Shown: piece after piece, positions 19,557 through 27,349 of the stretch
Numbering within the stretch: position 1 is the first letter of the stretch
Layout: each line of letters begins with the position of its first letter
Assembly (NCBI GenBank): GCA_048886185.1
Contig: JBHLKY010000008.1
Coordinates: forward strand, 60,001-92,000
Reading direction: 5' to 3'
DNA from: Candidatus Hermodarchaeota archaeon
GTDB lineage: Archaea; Asgardarchaeota; Heimdallarchaeia; Hodarchaeales; Hodarchaeaceae
Length of the DNA: 32,000 nucleotides
Position numbers and translations under genes: made by a program
The notes under the pieces: model-generated
Told to the model about the DNA's origin: nothing
The model's input: only the letters and a program-made list of their open reading frames with translations
Databases searched by the model: none

Positions 19557-20195
19557 ATGGCTGATAACCTCGATTCAATGGATGACGAAATTTCTGTTCC
19601 TTTAGTATATTTTGATATGGAAGGTTCATCGATAACGATCAAAGATCGTATTGCCCATGAAATCTTCGACAATGGCTATTTTGGTCAATGGACTTCAGAG
19701 GATTCTCTTGTCCTAGAGCCAGAAGAAATTCTTCTCCTTATGGATCGAAAAAGAATAGAAATCTTGAACTCCAAAACAAGTAGAAAAATCACCTCTTCCG
19801 AGATTGTAACTTATTTCACTAAAAAAAATAAAGATTTTTGGAGCCGGTACCTTGTTTACAAAGATCTTCGAAATAGAGGTTATGTTGTTCGTATGGGAAC
19901 CCAAATAACCGCACCTTTTCGAATCTATTCACGAGGAGGAAAACCGGGAGAGTCAATTAGCAAGAAGGTCATCTTTCCTCTTACAGAGGGAGAATTTCTT
20001 GATCTTGATTTTTTGGATCAATTAGTGAATCAATCAAAAATTGATAGGAAAATTTTATTACTCTCAGTAGTTGATCACCTTGGTGATGTTACCTACTATC
20101 AAGCATCACAGTTAGAACTAGAACCTAATGAGTTAGAATATGAATACCGCGATGAGCTTACCCCAAATAATGAAAATATTGAGGAGGAAAACTAA
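19557..20195 (+). CDS. tRNA-splicing endonuclease subunit, probably the non-catalytic structural (beta-type) subunit
   Basis: EndA fold motifs L.LEPEE.L.L, YLVYKDLRNRGYVV, FRIY.RG and RK.LL.SVVD..GDVTYY. The position of the catalytic His is occupied by Ile134, and the GxK(Y/F)G motif is replaced by GTQIT. Confidence 0.85.
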   Translation: MADNLDSMDDEISVPLVYFDMEGSSITIKDRIAHEIFDNGYFGQWTSEDSLVLEPEEILLLMDRKRIEILNSKTSRKITSSEIVTYFTKKNKDFWSRYLVYKDLRNRGYVVRMGTQITAPFRIYSRGGKPGESISKKVIFPLTEGEFLDLDFLDQLVNQSKIDRKILLLSVVDHLGDVTYYQASQLELEPNELEYEYRDELTPNNENIEEEN

Positions 20196-22084
20196 TGGAA
20201 GAGAGGAGATATTCATTAATCGCTGAAGACACTTTTTATATCCCTGATACATCAGCTATAATTAACGGGGGATTAAGAAATCTTCTCGATTCAAACAAAA
20301 TTGAATCTGACTCCAAGATAATTATTCATGCATCATTAATTGCTGAACTTGAACATCAAGCGAATATGGGTAGAGAAAGTGGCATTGAAGGATTGAATGA
20401 ACTGACGGAAATTCGTCGACGATGTGGTGAGTTGAATATTTTCTTAGAATATGGAGGACGAAGACCATATCTATCTGAGATAAAAAGAGCTCGATCAGGT
20501 GAAATTGATGCCATCATACGTGATTTTACTTTAAGTAAAGCTGGTATTCTTATCACATCAGACAAAATTCAACAACTTGTAGCAAAGTCAATCGGAATCA
20601 AGGTAATTTATATCCCAGAAAAAAAAACTCAGTATGAAAAAACTCTCACCATCGAAAAATATTTTGATCCAGAAACAATGAGTATTCATTTAAAACAAGG
20701 AGCCCCGGTTTATGTGAAACGGGGAACACCTGGAAACATTTTGTTTGAAAAATTTTCTGATGAAATACTCTCCAAAGAATCTCTAAAACAATTGGTGAAA
20801 GAAATTGTCGAGAAAGCTCAACTATTTGAGGATACTTTTATAGAAATTGAACGACAAGCTTCAACAATTGTACAATACAAGAATATTCGAATTGTCATTT
20901 GTAAACCTCCTTTTGCCGATGGCTGGGAAATTACTGCAGTTCGTCCCCTAGTAAATCTAGCAATTGAAGATTATCATCTTAGTTCAAGCCTTTACAAACG
21001 ATTGAAAAACAAAGCGGAAGGAATCCTCGTTGCTGGCAGTCCTGGAGCTGGAAAAACTACATTTACGAGAGCACTTGCACTTTTTTATCAAACAAAATCA
21101 AAGGTTATTAAAACCATTGAATCACCTCGTGATTTAGATCTAATGGTAGAAATTACACAGTATTCAAAGAATTTTGGAACTAGGTCTGAACTCCATGATA
21201 TTCTATTACTCTCTAGGCCAGACTACACGATCTTTGATGAAATAAGAGATACTGAGGATTTTAAACTATATACAGATCTTCGCATGGCGGGAATCGGTTT
21301 AGTTGGAGTAATTCATTCAAGTACTGCTATTGATGCCATACAACGTTTCATTGGGAGATTAGAATTAGGTATGATTCCAAGTGTTCTTGATACTATTATC
21401 TTTATTGAGGCTGGAAGAATTTCTCAAGTACTGGAGGTTAGGATGACAGTTAAAGTTCCTGAAGGTCTTGTTGTTAGTGATTTAGCTCGCCCTGTGGTGG
21501 AGGTACGAGATTTTGAGACTGGAAAAACAGCATATGAAATGTACACTTTTGGGGAGCAGACAGTTGTAATTCCACTTAAAGATGAGGATCTGTTTCCCAA
21601 AGTCGATGCTCGTGCTATTCAAGACATAACAGATGCTATAGAAAAACATACTAATCACCCTGTTGTTTTAATTCCAAAAGATCGATATGGAAGAAGATTT
21701 GAAATTCAATGTGCTCAGAATGATATTCCTGCGATTCTCGGAAGAGGAGGAGAAAACATTCATATGCTAGAAAGTAGATTCCAAATAAAATTAGATGTTA
21801 ACAAATCAGAAAAAAATTCGAGTGCATTTGACTATGCCATTCTGACAGATAATATGCTTTCTTTTCGAAAAAAATATCTTTATATAAACTTTCCAAAAAG
21901 AATGAGAAACAAGAATATTCAGTTCTTTAGTGAAAACAATCTATATAATAATAAAAAACCATTTTTTGAAGGTACAACATCCAGATCAGGGAAAATTAAG
22001 CTGTCAACCCATAATGAAGCATATATTATCTTCATGGAAAAACTAGAAACAAATCAAGAAAGAATTTACTGGAAACAGAGCTAA
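20195..22084 (+). CDS. PINc/VapC-family ATPase (PINA-like: PIN + P-loop ATPase + KH domain)
   Basis: PIN DTSAII...ELEHQAN.GRE.G..GL.EL, Walker A GSPGAGKTT, TIESPRDL, TIFDE, LVGVIHS, and KH GxxG (ILGRGGENI). Confidence 0.92.
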   Translation: MEERRYSLIAEDTFYIPDTSAIINGGLRNLLDSNKIESDSKIIIHASLIAELEHQANMGRESGIEGLNELTEIRRRCGELNIFLEYGGRRPYLSEIKRARSGEIDAIIRDFTLSKAGILITSDKIQQLVAKSIGIKVIYIPEKKTQYEKTLTIEKYFDPETMSIHLKQGAPVYVKRGTPGNILFEKFSDEILSKESLKQLVKEIVEKAQLFEDTFIEIERQASTIVQYKNIRIVICKPPFADGWEITAVRPLVNLAIEDYHLSSSLYKRLKNKAEGILVAGSPGAGKTTFTRALALFYQTKSKVIKTIESPRDLDLMVEITQYSKNFGTRSELHDILLLSRPDYTIFDEIRDTEDFKLYTDLRMAGIGLVGVIHSSTAIDAIQRFIGRLELGMIPSVLDTIIFIEAGRISQVLEVRMTVKVPEGLVVSDLARPVVEVRDFETGKTAYEMYTFGEQTVVIPLKDEDLFPKVDARAIQDITDAIEKHTNHPVVLIPKDRYGRRFEIQCAQNDIPAILGRGGENIHMLESRFQIKLDVNKSEKNSSAFDYAILTDNMLSFRKKYLYINFPKRMRNKNIQFFSENNLYNNKKPFFEGTTSRSGKIKLSTHNEAYIIFMEKLETNQERIYWKQS

Positions 22085-22100
22085 TAACTATTAAATCTCT

Positions 22101-22799
22101 TTAGAACTTGGTGATCCTCCCCGAATCATGCCCAACAATCACTTTGTCAGCTGTCCGACTGAACAACCCATTTTCAATAACTCCTGGAAACATATTAAGT
22201 TGTTTTTCTAGTGATTGAACTTCGTCAGGAGTGAGACAGTGATTACCCAAATCGATATCTACAATATAATTATGATTATCTGAAATTATTGGGCCAAGTT
22301 TACTTTTAGCTAAGCGTAAAGAAACTTTACCAAAAGATTCCAAGCGCTTTATGGTATGTTTCCACCCAAAAGGAAGAATTTCAACTGCAATAGGGAACAT
22401 TGGAAGTTGCGGGATTACTTTCTCAGCACTAACAACCAATATAAATTCAGCTGAAGCTTCTCTTAGTATTTTTTCCCTTGTTAATGCTCCTCCACCACCT
22501 TTAACACACTGTTTTTCTGGGTTAACTCTATCTGCTCCATCAATTGTAATATCTAATCCCTTTGAAGGCAGATCAATAATATTAAAATTTTTATTATCGA
22601 TATTTTGTAATTTAATAAGAGAATCTAAGGAAGAAGGTACAAGATTTAAATTATTAATGCCGCTTTCTGGAAGAAGATTTATCAACCATTGGATGGTCGT
22701 CCCACTTCCAATTCCAACGTTTTGATTAGGGGAAAGAAAATCGAGAGCTGCTCGTGCAGCTACAACTTTTGAGGTCTCTTTTAGATCCTTATTTGGTAT
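22101..22799 (-). CDS. rpiA: Ribose-5-phosphate isomerase A (true start upstream of the track call, probably ATA at 22799)
   Basis: DGAD, KGGGGALTREK, VEILPF, DN.NY and GVIENGLF motifs. The conserved N-terminus (K..AA.AALDF...VGIGSGTT) is encoded in frame at 22686-22799, upstream of the track's TTG. Confidence 0.9.
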   Translation of the reverse strand: MPNKDLKETSKVVAARAALDFLSPNQNVGIGSGTTIQWLINLLPESGINNLNLVPSSLDSLIKLQNIDNKNFNIIDLPSKGLDITIDGADRVNPEKQCVKGGGGALTREKILREASAEFILVVSAEKVIPQLPMFPIAVEILPFGWKHTIKRLESFGKVSLRLAKSKLGPIISDNHNYIVDIDLGNHCLTPDEVQSLEKQLNMFPGVIENGLFSRTADKVIVGHDSGRITKF

Positions 22800-22817
22800 T
22801 AATGATCCCTCTAAGGC

Positions 22818-24521
22818 CTATTCTTCCTTGAAAATTTCTCGAAGCCTTCGCAATTCCTTTAACATCTCTCCACGTAATTCAGCAATACTCGTTGATCTAG
22901 CATCTGCTATCAAATCAAGCGGGGAATCAGTTGAAGCTCCAGAAGCTGGTGGAGGAGGAGCTTGGGGAGTAGGAGCCGAGATAGGTACAGTACCTGGAGA
23001 TGGAGGAATAGGTGGAGGTGCACGGGATGGTGGGGGTGGTGGGACAGAAGGAGTTCTAGATGGTGCGGGAGGGGGTGCAGCTACTTCGGCAACAGAAGAA
23101 GGAACTGCTTTGACTGCTGGTGTAACTTCTGGGGTTTCCCCTAGTGCAACATCAAATAAGGCCTCTACTTCATCATCACCAGAAACAAGAGGCCCCGCTT
23201 TTTGAATTTTAGCCATTCTTGATTTAATTGTCTGATTCCGCTCTTGGTACAGTTTAATTATTGCCTCATATACTCTGGGGCGAAATTTATCTGCTCTGAC
23301 CGCTTCCTTGAACTGATTGACCATAGCTTCCTGGGATTCACTTAATATCTCCAGATAAGCTATCATCTCACTAGGAGTTGCTTCAATATCAGGTAACCGA
23401 TCAACACTTTCTAACAAAGCCTCTGGACCACTGATTTCCTCAGTTTCAAAGTACAGAATCGAACAAATGAATGAAAGGGAGGAAATTACAAGAATAATTC
23501 CATACATATAATAAATGTCCCAAGTCACCTCAAAAAGTGTATTTCCAAGGAGTTCTCCGACAACTGACGAAATTTCGGGTGATTCTGGTAGGACAAGAAC
23601 AGCAGAAATAATAATCGAGATTACTCCCAAAAAAAGTGTAATCAACCATATATATCGTAGCTTAGTAATAAATTCATTTGATTGTTTTGTACCCGCTAGA
23701 ATTGAGCACATTAAAATAAAAAGAAGACCACCATATGCCATGAAAGCATACCAATCAGTATTAAGAACCACTGATTGATCAATTATTTCAAAATACACTA
23801 GATATGATCCTATTAAAAGTACAAACCCAATTAGTGCAACTAGGATCCATATAAATCGTAATTTATGGAGAACTCTACCAAAATTTGTACTTGCTGTGAA
23901 CAGGATTGGTATTACTCCTAAATACAGCACTATTAAACCATTCAGAAAGAATATGTCCCAAGTAAAGCCAGGTAGGTCTAAATATCCCCCATAGATAATT
24001 AAACTTAAAATTTGTAGTGAAAGACCAACTAGTACAAATAACACGAAGAGGAATTTAAAATTCCATAATCGTTCACGATTTTCGACACCAAACAAAATTA
24101 ATGACAAACCAAATATTATTAGAATTGCTGCAATAACGAAATAATCAAACCAGGTGTGATATGGATCAAAAATAGATAAATAATCTCCATAGACTAGGTT
24201 TGAATATATCAACATCAAAAATCCAATTCCAACAAGCAAAAGAACATGAAAATATAATTTCTTAACGCTTTTCTTTCCCCTAGTGTCTAATACAGCCAGT
24301 GATGGGAATAAACCGACTATTGATAAGAAAAATCCAAAAGCAGTTAAGACACGATAATCAAGTCCATAAAATAATCGATTCCATCTTATAGGATCTGCAG
24401 CAGTATCTACTGAGGAGGCTACTCCTGTGAAATATAGCAGAGCAATGAATAGACTCAATACCCCAATACCAGCGATGGTGAGAAGTACTTTTGATGATCT
24501 TGTAACTGTTTTTCTCAACAA
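22818..24521 (-). CDS. Polytopic (~10 TM) membrane protein with cytoplasmic helical hairpin, polyproline tract and conserved C-terminal helix (paralog 1)
   Basis: Ten hydrophobic segments, a Pro-rich segment at about 22947-23078, and clear paralogy to 25103-26782. The likely start is the second TTG (24518), matching MRKTV and the GGAG spacing of the paralog. Confidence 0.85.
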   Translation of the reverse strand: MLRKTVTRSSKVLLTIAGIGVLSLFIALLYFTGVASSVDTAADPIRWNRLFYGLDYRVLTAFGFFLSIVGLFPSLAVLDTRGKKSVKKLYFHVLLLVGIGFLMLIYSNLVYGDYLSIFDPYHTWFDYFVIAAILIIFGLSLILFGVENRERLWNFKFLFVLFVLVGLSLQILSLIIYGGYLDLPGFTWDIFFLNGLIVLYLGVIPILFTASTNFGRVLHKLRFIWILVALIGFVLLIGSYLVYFEIIDQSVVLNTDWYAFMAYGGLLFILMCSILAGTKQSNEFITKLRYIWLITLFLGVISIIISAVLVLPESPEISSVVGELLGNTLFEVTWDIYYMYGIILVISSLSFICSILYFETEEISGPEALLESVDRLPDIEATPSEMIAYLEILSESQEAMVNQFKEAVRADKFRPRVYEAIIKLYQERNQTIKSRMAKIQKAGPLVSGDDEVEALFDVALGETPEVTPAVKAVPSSVAEVAAPPPAPSRTPSVPPPPPSRAPPPIPPSPGTVPISAPTPQAPPPPASGASTDSPLDLIADARSTSIAELRGEMLKELRRLREIFKEE

Positions 24522-24563
24522 AATGATCTCCTAATCATCAATATTATAAAACCCATTATTATG

Positions 24564-24600
24564 ATTATATCAAATGTTTACTTAAAAAGTCTAGTGAAAT
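24564..24600 (-). promoter_or_regulatory. Conserved upstream element of paralog 1 (TATA-like TTTTTAAG plus flanking motifs)
   Basis: The 20-bp + strand sequence cttaaaaagtctagtgaaat (24581-24600) and attatatcaaa (24564-24574) recur with identical spacing upstream of paralog 2. Confidence 0.65.
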
Positions 24601-25102
24601 TCTTTTTCTTCTTATAAATCAGGAATAAATAATGAAATTCTTCTTCTAAACGATCGGGGACGAAAATAAGTATATAATTATGAAATAAAAAAACGAGTTA
24701 ACTCTTTTGAGCTTGTTACTCCGTTTTCTAAATTCATTAAGAATATTTAGAGTCATGATTGGGCTTACAAAGATCATCAAAATAGTGTTATGATGTATCA
24801 ATGGGAACAAAAATTACCACACAGCCCCGATTTGATTCCTCAGAGATAGCAAGATTAATCGATGAACAAATCTAATACTTTTCCCACTCCCACAGGAAAT
24901 GAAATACATTGAAATTTTTTAAAATTTAGCAGTAAATTAACTAAAAATGGTGGAAGAAAACTGATACCCTCGCTTAAGATTGTTTAGTAAGTAATGTAAC
25001 CCTTTAAGCTTGATACAAAGTTTTCCTATTAGACTCAAGCCTGATGAATTGGTATGCGAATATCAGAACGAATTAGTAGTGAATAACAACTTTTTAAAGA
25101 AG

Positions 25103-26782
25103 CTAGTCTTCTTTAAATATTTCTCGTAATCTTGATAACTCCTTTAACATCTCGCCACGTAATTCAGCTATACTTGTAGACCTAGCATCAGCCATTAAAT
25201 CAAGAGATGATTGCACTGGAGGAGCTGTTGATGGCACAGGTATAGGAGGGGGTGTTCCTGGAGATGATGGAGGGATTGGGGGGCCGCTAGGAGGCATAGG
25301 AGGAGATGGTGAAGGTGTTGTTATTGGTGGGGCGCTTGGAGGTGGGGTGGGAATTGGGGTTACTTTTTTATCTGGAATGGAAGGAGCTTCTTCGCTTAAT
25401 GCAGCATCGAATAAAAATTTGGCACTACTTGGAACTTTCTCTCTATAATCATTGATCTTTGTTTTTATTAATTTATTTAGATCTTGATATTGTTTAGTTA
25501 TTGCCTCAAATGTTCGTCCTCGAAATCTATCCTGTCTAAACGCCTCTTTGAAATATTTAATCATCTCTACTTGGGACCTATTCACAATCTCTAAATAAGC
25601 TAACATCTCGCTTGGCGTGGTATCGATACCAGGTAATTTATCGTCTTCAACAGCTATAAGTGCTCCAATATCAACACTTATTTCTTCAGATTCGAAAAAA
25701 ACAATTGAACAAATGAATATGATAGAAATAAAAGTCATTATTATTCCATTAACATAATATACATCCCAAGTCATTCCTATTAACATTAGCATTCCATAAG
25801 TGTTTGGAAAATCGGAAATTGTCATTAGAGGGAGTGTTTCAAGTTGAGGGATATCAATGTATTCAGATGTAGGAAGAACGAGAACGAAAGAAATCAGTAA
25901 TTGGATAGTTCCCACAAAAAGAAGCAATATCATTAAAAAACGGAGCTTATAAATAAATTCATAAGCTTGATCTGAAGCTGAAATTAGCAATAGACCAATT
26001 AAAATTGCAAGACTTCCAAATAATAAGAAATCATAATAATTCATGAACTCAAATACTGTTATGGGCAGAATTTCATTTAAAGCCAAGGTAGGAATAATAT
26101 AAGCAATAATTCCAATTAATGCGATCAGGATAAATATAAAACGTAAGCGATGAATAATTGCACGGAAGTTCGAACTGGCGCTAATCAAGAGGGGAATCAT
26201 GCCAATAAATAGTATAACACCTCCAAATAGATAAAAGGTGAGCCACATACTTTTTTCGATGTCAATGAAGGCTAATAAATCGAAATACGTTAATAAACTG
26301 GCAATCTCAAAGAGGATTCCAGCAAAAAAAATGAGGAAAAAAATAATTCTAAATCTCCATAACCTTGTGCGATCATGAGTAGCCAATAAAATCGTTGAAA
26401 AACTAAAAATTATTAATACTGCACCCAGAATATAATAATCAAACCATGTATGGCTAGGAGTTATTGGTGTAAGAATATGGGGAACTAAGGTTGAATAAAT
26501 CAAGAAAATAAACCCAATTCCAGTTAGAAGTAGTAAATGAGGATAAAATTTTTTTACTGCTTTTTTTCCACTTGCATCCAATGACGTTAAGACGGGAAAA
26601 AATCCAATTAGAGATAAATAAAAGCCGAAAGCTAATAATATACCATAATTAAATCCATAAAAAAGTCCGCCTTCTATGCCTCCAGCACCTGAAAAGTATA
26701 TTATACCAAGAATTATGGTTAATATCCCAATACCAGCGATGGTGAGAAGTATATTTGATGATCTTACAACTGTTTTTCTCAA
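25103..26782 (-). CDS. Polytopic (~10 TM) membrane protein with cytoplasmic helical hairpin, polyproline tract and conserved C-terminal helix (paralog 2)
   Basis: Same architecture as 22818-24521: shared N-terminus (MRKTV.RSS..LLTIAGIG), TPSEM.AYLEI and ADARSTSIAELRGEMLKEL.RLREIFKE. Confidence 0.85.
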   Translation of the reverse strand: MRKTVVRSSNILLTIAGIGILTIILGIIYFSGAGGIEGGLFYGFNYGILLAFGFYLSLIGFFPVLTSLDASGKKAVKKFYPHLLLLTGIGFIFLIYSTLVPHILTPITPSHTWFDYYILGAVLIIFSFSTILLATHDRTRLWRFRIIFFLIFFAGILFEIASLLTYFDLLAFIDIEKSMWLTFYLFGGVILFIGMIPLLISASSNFRAIIHRLRFIFILIALIGIIAYIIPTLALNEILPITVFEFMNYYDFLLFGSLAILIGLLLISASDQAYEFIYKLRFLMILLLFVGTIQLLISFVLVLPTSEYIDIPQLETLPLMTISDFPNTYGMLMLIGMTWDVYYVNGIIMTFISIIFICSIVFFESEEISVDIGALIAVEDDKLPGIDTTPSEMLAYLEIVNRSQVEMIKYFKEAFRQDRFRGRTFEAITKQYQDLNKLIKTKINDYREKVPSSAKFLFDAALSEEAPSIPDKKVTPIPTPPPSAPPITTPSPSPPMPPSGPPIPPSSPGTPPPIPVPSTAPPVQSSLDLMADARSTSIAELRGEMLKELSRLREIFKED

Positions 26783-27231: not shown

Positions 27232-27349
27232 GCCGAGGTATTCTAGTCCGGTAGGAAGCATGCCTGGAAAGTTTGATAAAAGGATTCCTTTCTCTACTCT
27301 AGGTAGCATGTGCTCTTTGAGCTCGAGAGTTCAAATCTCTCCCTCGGCG
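27232..27349 (+). tRNA. tRNA-Ser(GGA) with a 35-nt canonical intron at 37/38 (27270-27304); CCA not encoded
   Basis: Acceptor GCCGAGG/CCTCGGC, anticodon arm CATGC-CTGGAA|A-GCATG, variable arm GCTC-TTT-GAGC, T-arm GAGAG-TTCAAAT-CTCTC, G73. BHB central helix CTGG/CTAG. Confidence 0.95.

Follow-up and report, generated by a model that had tools for sequence, protein, structure and literature searches.

Tandem ten-helix membrane proteins of an Asgard archaeon belong to a syntenic family, seen only in Asgard, with a near-invariant C-terminal helix

Within a 32,000-nucleotide (nt) stretch of the Candidatus Hermodarchaeota archaeon assembly GCA_048886185.1 (contig JBHLKY010000008.1, forward-strand positions 60,001 to 92,000; hereafter the window, whose own numbering is used throughout), two tandem paralogs on the minus strand, P0001 (567 amino acids (aa), 22818-24521) and P0002 (559 aa, 25103-26782), share an architecture of transmembrane (TM) domain, helical hairpin, Pro-rich spacer and near-invariant C-terminal helix, which confirms the observation reported in a first-pass annotation of the window. 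The family to which they belong is larger than first described, Asgard-only as far as the searches reach, syntenic and unannotated, and P0001 and P0002 appear from sequence comparison to be lineage-specific, membrane-expanded members of this undescribed family, which was seen only in Asgard. The explanation favoured here, with about an even chance of being correct, is that these proteins are membrane-anchored tethers offering a helical docking motif to a putative conserved cytoplasmic partner.

The C-terminal helix occupies aa 534-567 of P0001 (22821-22922, minus strand), where it is invariant within the genus, and aa 526-559 of P0002 (25106-25207, minus strand). The terminal 35-mers of the two paralogs are identical at 31 of 35 positions, as first reported, and 15 of the 31 codons for identical residues differ synonymously. 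Across about 40-50 homologs, which are 46-66% identical overall to P0001, the 33-mer SPLDLIADARSTSIAELRGEMLKELRRLREIFKEE is near-invariant, and over the 32 codons compared among 20 species-level genomes of the genus there is 100% amino-acid identity versus 52% third-position identity, with all degenerate codons varying. Because the protein is invariant while its synonymous sites vary, the constraint falls on every residue of the peptide and is attributable neither to DNA or RNA nor to chance. Protein-level purifying selection on the terminal helix is extreme, as a binding motif would show; the initial claim of selection on such a motif, made from the two paralogs, therefore holds, and the effect across 20 species is stronger than was claimed. 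The same data bear on the proposal that the helix binds no protein at all and is either an in-plane amphipathic membrane helix or an overlapping nucleic-acid element. The helix is indeed amphipathic, and rpiA starts at or next to the stop codon, so that a 3' translational-coupling element is conceivable. However, the synonymous variation rules out constraint on the tail at the DNA or RNA level, Rfam has no match inside the paralog genes, and the charged residues R550, E552, E556, R559 and K/R561 are fixed beside the hydrophobic stripe, whereas lipid-binding helices vary freely at flanking charged positions, all of which makes this proposal highly improbable.

A pan-Asgard core of the helix (aa 543-564 of P0001) takes the form [ST][ST][IV][AS]xLRxEMLKELxRL[KR]xΦΦ. 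In the set of 21 diverse tails, L549 and M553 never vary; conservation reaches at least 90% at R550, L554, E556, L557, R559 and L560 (95% for Glu556) and holds by residue class at positions 546, 561, 563 and 564, whereas at position 555 K accounts for 71% of the tails and T, N or A for the others. An S/T-rich N-cap, S-T-S-I-A-E, with a capping-box pattern lies ahead of the helix. When residues 546-564 were placed on a helical wheel, 13 of the 19 were class-conserved and occupied a ~220° arc (280° to 140°), and the variable positions 548, 551, 558 and 562 grouped opposite, at ~214°. This is the pattern of one unbroken helix of ~5.5 turns with about two thirds of its surface buried, as predicted from conservation and the structural model.

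Several resemblances of the helix to known sequences were examined and set aside. A PDB sequence match of the tail to the designed toroidal repeat dTor_3x33L (E ~1e-6, three weak repeats) was judged a chance resemblance of idealised helices. A reading by eye as a ubiquitin-interacting motif (A-x3-S) fails at the key Ser position, which is a conserved Glu, and has no profile support; a Lifeact-like reading, also by eye, likewise has no profile support. Weak matches to OAR (aristaless, PF03826), found in animal paired-like homeodomain proteins, were obtained for 12 of 21 tails through the shared S-S-I-A-x-L-R, and both elements are C-terminal helices; however, none of these matches reached the Pfam cut-off of 20.1 bits (best E 0.014, scores of at most 15 bits), the matched stretch was 11 residues long, and the resemblance, between unrelated proteins of unrelated organisms, is treated as chance.

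About 50 homologs were found, and all of the named ones come from Asgard metagenome-assembled genomes labelled Heimdall-, Hod-, 'Thor-' or 'Prometh-archaeota', in which they are called 'hypothetical'; the matches include no named member outside Asgard and none with a functional annotation. Neither P0001 nor P0002 matches any Pfam or NCBIfam family, no such family matches other members above its cut-off, and no description of the family was found in the literature on Asgard WH2, polyproline, profilin, MIM and ESCRT. An exhaustive search with the 38-residue tail against 1.84 billion representatives returned 17 proteins in three groups, namely the close family, the divergent multi-TM proteins P0062-P0068, which carry ARSTSIAELRGEMLKELRRLRDIFKED (the same 26-mer) behind long Pro/Gly-rich tracts, and the soluble 344-aa P0056, in which the motif is repeated three times in tandem. 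In P0056 (L049:8001-9035, GCA_048885365.1) the copies, KTSIAxLRxEMLTExxxLRExFK, lie ~15 residues apart in the N-terminal part and are followed by a helical domain, and the gene adjoins a RadA/Rad51-like gene.

A scan of 400 sampled Asgard genomes revealed a near-identical tail on a ~560-aa open reading frame (ORF) in all 21 genomes of the genus, five of which, including the source genome, have two tandem copies. Within the same class, a ~65%-identical tail, FAKSTSIAALRxEMLKELxRLKxFMSE, ends ~300-aa single-pass proteins in 30 of 31, 3 of 3 and 7 of 12 genomes of other families, and carriers of this single-TM form include Ca. Heimdallarchaeum endolithica and aukensis; in other classes, weaker versions end ~190-260-aa proteins that have no TM helix. 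A 27-residue core profile found the motif in 28 of the 31 sampled genomes of the largest family, where the single-sequence query had missed it, and the carriers there are soluble proteins of ~210-260 aa with GPPRAPPGGGPP-type spacers and a terminal motif. The motif was also found in one family examined via synteny, and the family as a whole turned up in the majority of the sampled Asgard genome families.

Across the 13,260 ORFs of the source genome, the core profile gave significant matches only for P0001, P0002 and P0053, a soluble 251-aa paralog (C2:109796-110551) with a hairpin-like N-terminus, a PTS-rich spacer and the ending ...RATGIAILRKQMLTELKKIRSVV; its diverged tail scored 38.9 bits, a value to be read with P0053 itself being a row in the profile's alignment. 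A decayed second copy of the P0053 type, with a frameshift and an in-frame stop, is present at C24 ~50190-51124. In three genera, a ~155-aa Zn-ribbon-like family carries the motif internally, as LRD[EQ]MLxELxxLK[ED][IL]I at ~45-65, followed by a Cys-rich C-terminal half. Since the motif occurs in tandem in P0056, internally in this Zn-ribbon-like family and in the soluble paralog P0053, it behaves as a portable module.

Gene order was compared by ORF clustering over 22 loci, comprising 20 from families outside the genus, the window and the divergent P0066 locus. The tail gene is directly upstream of rpiA in 16 of these, from at least six genome families, mostly co-directionally and with gaps of 4-120 nt; a gene for a PIN-PilT-KH ATPase is nearby in 12 loci and that for a tRNA endonuclease (endA) in 11. 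In the window, rpiA (22101-22817, minus strand) is directly downstream of P0001 and co-directional with it, and is a conserved neighbour across Asgard classes; the 629-aa protein with PIN, PilT-like ATPase and KH parts (20195-22084, plus strand) and the tRNA-splicing endonuclease subunit (19557-20195, plus strand) form one block with rpiA and the tail gene, and the conservation of this block likewise extends over Asgard classes. Because they share this rpiA-side gene order, the single-pass proteins are positional orthologs of the ten-TM proteins, and the hairpins of the two kinds align (...IEKxKxxxxxxALxDAxxKKxISxxIFxRL... versus ...LEILSKSQENMVNQFKEAVRADKFRPRVYE...). The constant part of the family is thus the hairpin, spacer and terminal helix, and the part which evolves is the anchor. 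In lineages where the tail gene is not beside rpiA, its neighbours include genes for purine synthesis, S25e, AlaRS, LysRS, a NUDIX protein and a GTPase. At one locus of this kind (L091:8205-9134) the tail gene is followed by a co-directional gene for a 309-aa Arf-family GTPase (PF00025, E 1.4e-18).

The anchor of the two paralogs comprises aa 1-362 in P0001 (23436-24521, minus strand) and aa 1-372 in P0002 (25667-26782, minus strand). The genes are co-directional and 581 bp apart, and the proteins are 44% identical across their full length. Both ORFs have a TTG start preceded by GGAG, and the true start of P0001 is probably the second TTG, at 24518, because the resulting MRKTV... matches the homologs. 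AlphaFold2 (AF2), run for P0001 on a 42-sequence alignment, predicted ten TM helices at a predicted local distance difference test score (pLDDT) of ~90, and the TM domain modelled alone reached a pLDDT of 89.9 and a predicted template-modelling score (pTM) of 0.88. Counts of K+R in alternate loops were 3, 5, 2, 2 and 2 inside and 2, 0, 0, 0 and 0 outside, and this alternation therefore places both termini inside (N-in/C-in) and the tail in the cytoplasm. The adjacent minus-strand ORFs, the roughly ten TM helices and the cytoplasmic tail described in the first-pass annotation were thus all recovered.

When the five two-helix units of the TM domain were compared with hhalign, seven of the ten pairs matched at probabilities of 88-98%, with E-values to 1e-14, and the other three were below 25%. 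On account of these probabilities the domain is read as a 2-TM hairpin repeated five times in tandem, with a short basic interfacial helix ahead of each copy, and it provides a clean example of a membrane protein made by serial duplication of a TM hairpin. Its invariant residues are mainly Gly, Trp, Tyr and Pro at helix ends, and the homolog alignment shows no conserved charged residue in the membrane core. An exhaustive VIA search gave as its top match a designed helical repeat protein (Z 7.4), with no membrane family prominent. Foldseek on the PDB, with the full and the TM-only models, gave no match above noise (E>0.1), and an ESM-atlas shape search with the same two models stayed at noise level (TM-scores at most 0.35). 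No counterpart of the ten-TM fold therefore emerged among solved structures from VIA or Foldseek on the PDB, and the structure search of the TM domain returned no matching transporter or enzyme fold. Because the membrane core has no conserved charges and no such fold was matched, the TM domain fits the role of an anchor or scaffold better than that of a transporter.

The cytoplasmic part of P0001 is modelled by AF2 as helices at 383-409 and 415-442, a short helix at 449-459, disorder to 533 and the terminal helix at 534-566, in agreement with the earlier description of the tail as a helical region, a Pro-rich tract and a conserved end. The first two helices form a highly conserved hairpin, at aa ~380-445 in P0001 (23187-23384, minus strand) and aa ~387-452 in P0002 (25427-25624, minus strand), with conserved residues, in P0001, T382, E385, M386, Y389-I392, F404, K405, A407, R409, D411, F413, R414 and E419. 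The top VIA matches of the hairpin were 2f66_A (Z 10.1, root-mean-square deviation (rmsd) 2.1 Å over 65 aa), 6vme_B (Z 9.8) and 2caz_D (Z 9.6, rmsd 1.0 Å over 60 aa), all of which are steadiness-box hairpins of Vps23/TSG101 (ESCRT-I), at the head of a flat list (Z 8.4-10.1) of dozens of unrelated hairpins, including those of ESCRT-III and the Asgard ribophorin I cytoplasmic domain. When the profiles PF09454 and PF18822 were applied to 24 family members, one member matched CdvA (E 5.7e-4, 20 bits against 30) and one Vps23_core (E 0.037), both below the cut-off, and an ESM-atlas feature search with the cytoplasmic module returned no usable match.

These hairpin neighbours, with the placement of the terminal helix, bear on the possibility that the helix is a MIT-interacting motif 1 (MIM1)-type motif, with the Vps4 MIT domain or else some other ESCRT helix receptor as its target, and that the family consists of ESCRT membrane adaptors comparable with CdvA, a reading considered rather unlikely. 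The MIM1 consensus is (D/E)xxLxxRLxxL(K/R). As in ESCRT-III, the family helix stands at the extreme C-terminus behind a flexible Pro-containing linker, and its register M553-x3-L557-x2-L560-[KR]561 equals the LxxxLxxL[KR] spacing, so that M553, L557, L560 and R/K561 fit the consensus. The acidic and Arg positions of the consensus, however, are exchanged, with Arg (R550) at L1-3 and Glu (E556) at L2-1, the reverse of the charges in the eukaryotic form, and the conserved surface (~220°, at least 19 residues) exceeds the MIM1 face. The ESCRT-IIIB protein of the same genome ends in ...QELQKELEKIKKG, which by eye is similar to the tail's ...GEMLKELRRLREI at 8 of 10 positions, and this MIM of ESCRT-IIIB is also invariant in the genus; however, the tail-core hidden Markov model did not retrieve the ESCRT-IIIB C-terminus from the genome's ORFs, and the family proteins, unlike ESCRT-III, have no Snf7 match. 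MIT domains are present in 374 of the 400 Asgard genomes, nearly all motif carriers among them, a co-occurrence that is uninformative because MIT is near-universal in Asgard, and the MIT domain is 73-90% identical within the genus against 100% for the tail. Although the ESCRT-I hairpins head the structural list (Z ~10, rmsd 1.0-2.1 Å), the list is one of generic hairpins, and in the loci compared the family genes never adjoin ESCRT genes. Complex prediction for the Vps4 MIT domain (aa 1-80, 19 rows) with a 45-aa tail (21 rows), in a run without controls, scored 0.12 and 0.04, the mark being 0.32, and this counts neither for nor against binding.

The closest known parallel in layout is CdvA of the Thermoproteota, in which a PRC barrel is followed by a helical hairpin or coiled coil and then by a disordered linker that leads to the C-terminal E3B peptide, through which ESCRT-III/CdvB is brought to the membrane. 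The family shares the order of the parts (membrane-associated N-terminal part, hairpin, linker and short conserved C-terminal peptide) and the principle that a terminal peptide does the recruiting, and the weak Pfam match of one ortholog is to the CdvA coiled coil. It differs in having no PRC barrel and in attaching to the membrane through integral TM helices, the Pfam match is sub-cut-off and found in 1 of 24 members, and the family motif is a helix of 22-33 residues whereas E3B is a short strand-forming peptide. To our knowledge, Asgard ESCRT-III has no counterpart of the winged helix to which E3B binds.

Between the hairpin and the terminal helix lies a Pro/Ser/Ala/Thr-rich spacer, at aa ~460-533 of P0001 (22923-23144, minus strand), delimited by composition and a pLDDT below 50. 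Its disorder is constant among orthologs, and its length and sequence differ. Of the 42 multi-TM members, 7 have runs of at least five Pro and 35 lack them, the longest Pro run in P0002 is three, and two orthologs have spacers of 13% and 8% Pro; some spacers are even acidic. Because length and composition vary while disorder persists, the spacer is read as being kept as a disordered reach element and not as a poly-Pro ligand, which does not sustain the profilin-binding tract proposed in the first-pass annotation.

That proposal was part of an actin model, in which the Pro-rich tract recruits profilin-actin and the helix is a WH2-like binder of G-actin, giving membrane tethering or nucleation in the manner of WASP, VASP or formins. 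The overall layout does recall WASP, WAVE and Ena-VASP proteins, with a helical N-terminal part, a Pro-rich region, a C-terminal amphipathic helix and a slightly acidic end, most clearly in the soluble orthologs with GPP-rich spacers of the GPPRAPPGGGPP type, and the three tandem motifs of P0056 are comparable with tandem WH2 nucleators. The stretch 'DARS..L...LR.G', which we take to recall the start of the WAVE WH2, was counted on the same side. The source genome encodes actin and profilin, and actin is conserved enough to account for a frozen ligand. A Heimdallarchaeal profilin is reported to bind polyproline (PMC8410842), which was also counted for the model.

However, Pfam WH2 (PF02205) matched neither P0001 nor P0002 at E<=1 nor any of the 21 tails at E<=10, with the proviso that HMMER filters may drop very weak matches. 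A WH2 motif is a short helix of 2-3 turns followed by an extended LKKT segment. In the family the LKKT equivalent is L554-K/x-E556-L557, with no conserved basic pair and with the conserved Glu in its place, and the helical period is unbroken over 546-564, within a single AF2 helix at 534-566, where the WH2 segment would be extended. The 'DARS' stretch is found only in the multi-TM subfamily, poly-Pro is not conserved, being missing from most multi-TM members and scarce in the Pro-poor spacers of some orthologs, and in the loci compared no family gene adjoins genes for actin, profilin or gelsolin. The canonical WH2 form is contradicted by these observations, and the actin model is considered improbable. 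Of the initial interpretation, the cytoplasmic tail and the selected helix stand, and all named homologs belong to Asgard; the WH2 and profilin parts are not supported. The alternatives named in the first-pass annotation, a MIM1-like or an oligomerising helix, are kept here as rival readings of low probability.

The membrane-anchored tether would be built on the observed architecture, topology, orthology, gene order, helix-periodic conservation and occurrence of the motif in other contexts. Its TM part would hold the protein in the membrane. This anchor differs between lineages, some of which have none; most Heimdallarchaeia have one TM helix, and the proteins described here have ten, produced by serial hairpin duplication. 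The ~65-aa hairpin would serve as a folded, possibly dimerising, base, and the spacer, of 70-150 aa rich in Pro, Thr, Ser and Ala, would act as the reach element that holds the terminal helix far from the membrane, by an estimated tens of nanometres if extended. The terminal helix, which is amphipathic and N-capped and spans ~22 residues (33 in this subfamily), would then dock in trans into a groove or helical bundle of the putative partner, and docking would bring the partner to the membrane. Candidate partners rank in the order ESCRT/Vps4-type helix receptors, actin and the family's own hairpin, each with a low probability; whichever it is, the partner is likely to be a central conserved component.

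Several points weigh against this tether. AF2 is only moderately confident about the terminal helix (pLDDT 60-81); the gene neighbourhoods are housekeeping ones (rpiA, tRNA endonuclease, ribosomal proteins, purine synthesis and aminoacyl-tRNA synthetases) with no functional link; and the ~220° of conservation and strict co-occurrence with the hairpin would also fit self-assembly, as a coiled coil or by docking on the family's own hairpin. Self-association is the main generic rival, though an unlikely one, whereby the helix either assembles into a homo-oligomeric coiled coil or bundle or binds the family's own hairpin, in cis as autoinhibition or in trans as a sub-membrane lattice. Hairpin and terminal helix occur together in all main architectures, and P0056 joins its three motifs with what by eye is a hairpin-like 'G-V-T-S-x3-W-x3-K-x-L' segment. 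Some two thirds of the circumference of the helix is conserved, as in a helical-bundle core, the three tandem copies could make an intramolecular three-helix bundle, and a hairpin plus a helix is a natural three-helix bundle of the kind used in ESCRT-III autoinhibition. However, the ~155-aa Zn-ribbon-like family has the motif with no evident hairpin, and structural neighbours of the full-length AF2 model align to the hairpin alone (60-70 residues), and in no case was a bundle of hairpin and helix matched, which suggests that the model does not pack the hairpin with the helix. Further, the terminal helix shows zero substitutions in 20 species, unlike simple oligomerisation helices, which usually accept many.

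The arrangement proposed for the tether also has parallels in ZipA, in the linker and C-terminal peptide of FtsZ and in the TonB/TolA rods, where an anchor or polymer is joined through a variable Pro- or P/Q-rich spacer to a small terminal binder. There is no kinship with these systems in sequence or fold, their partners are FtsZ, FtsA and outer-membrane receptors, and this family was found only in Asgard. How Asgard actin, ESCRT and small GTPases are linked to membranes is a question for eukaryogenesis. We know of few candidate Asgard membrane adaptors, and the literature consulted on Asgard cytoskeletal and ESCRT systems names no adaptor of this kind. The family offers a lead, being widespread in Asgard, located in a housekeeping gene block and equipped with a portable helix of what may loosely be compared to histone-like stringency, and the helix of 22-33 residues is a short, synthesisable bait for a partner search. 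In a further-reaching version, which is doubtful, the helix would be an Asgard-only recruitment code linking membranes, through anchors of zero, one or ten TM helices and a Pro-rich tether, to the ESCRT/Vps4 or actin machinery, and the ten-TM version, whose homologs are labelled Hodarchaeales-type, would be a specialised membrane-shaping scaffold; if true, this code would be a pre-eukaryotic counterpart of the CdvA, WASP-family or TANGO1 adaptors.

Several minor observations were made in the course of the motif searches. Three tandem membrane proteins with bPH_2 domains (PF03703), encoded in the source genome at C7:195080-197156, end in motif-like helices (...GEMLAELREIKRILTD, ...LQKEILDELRHIKEILSKR and ...IQREIINELREIKQLLKNE), and the two that were retrieved by the tail profile had non-significant scores of 11.2 and 5.7 bits. 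Sec23/Sec24-like proteins of ~555-586 aa, with a Zn finger, a trunk and a beta-sandwich, the last two exceeding their Pfam cut-offs, are present in 4 of the 31 sampled genomes of one family (f20), and one such protein has a chance copy of the motif. A lead of the COPII/TANGO1 type was rejected on this account, as the motif in the Sec23/24-like protein (28.7 bits) is not kept by its orthologs and is a one-off.

Two further observations concern the surroundings of the paralogs. In the spacer upstream of paralog 2, Rfam identified a single tRNA gene (27232-27349, plus strand; 45.7 bits), which at 118 nt is presumably intron-containing. Directly behind the stop of paralog 1 (22686-22820, minus strand), the conserved N-terminus of rpiA, ...LEGSLI..., is in an open frame with no ATG, GTG or TTG ahead of the GxGSGTT motif, and this frame is the same as that of the upstream TAG; three further genomes of the genus likewise have no canonical rpiA start, in a different frame. 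This suggests, from the reading frames, that rpiA may use a non-canonical start or be coupled to the upstream gene by termination-reinitiation.

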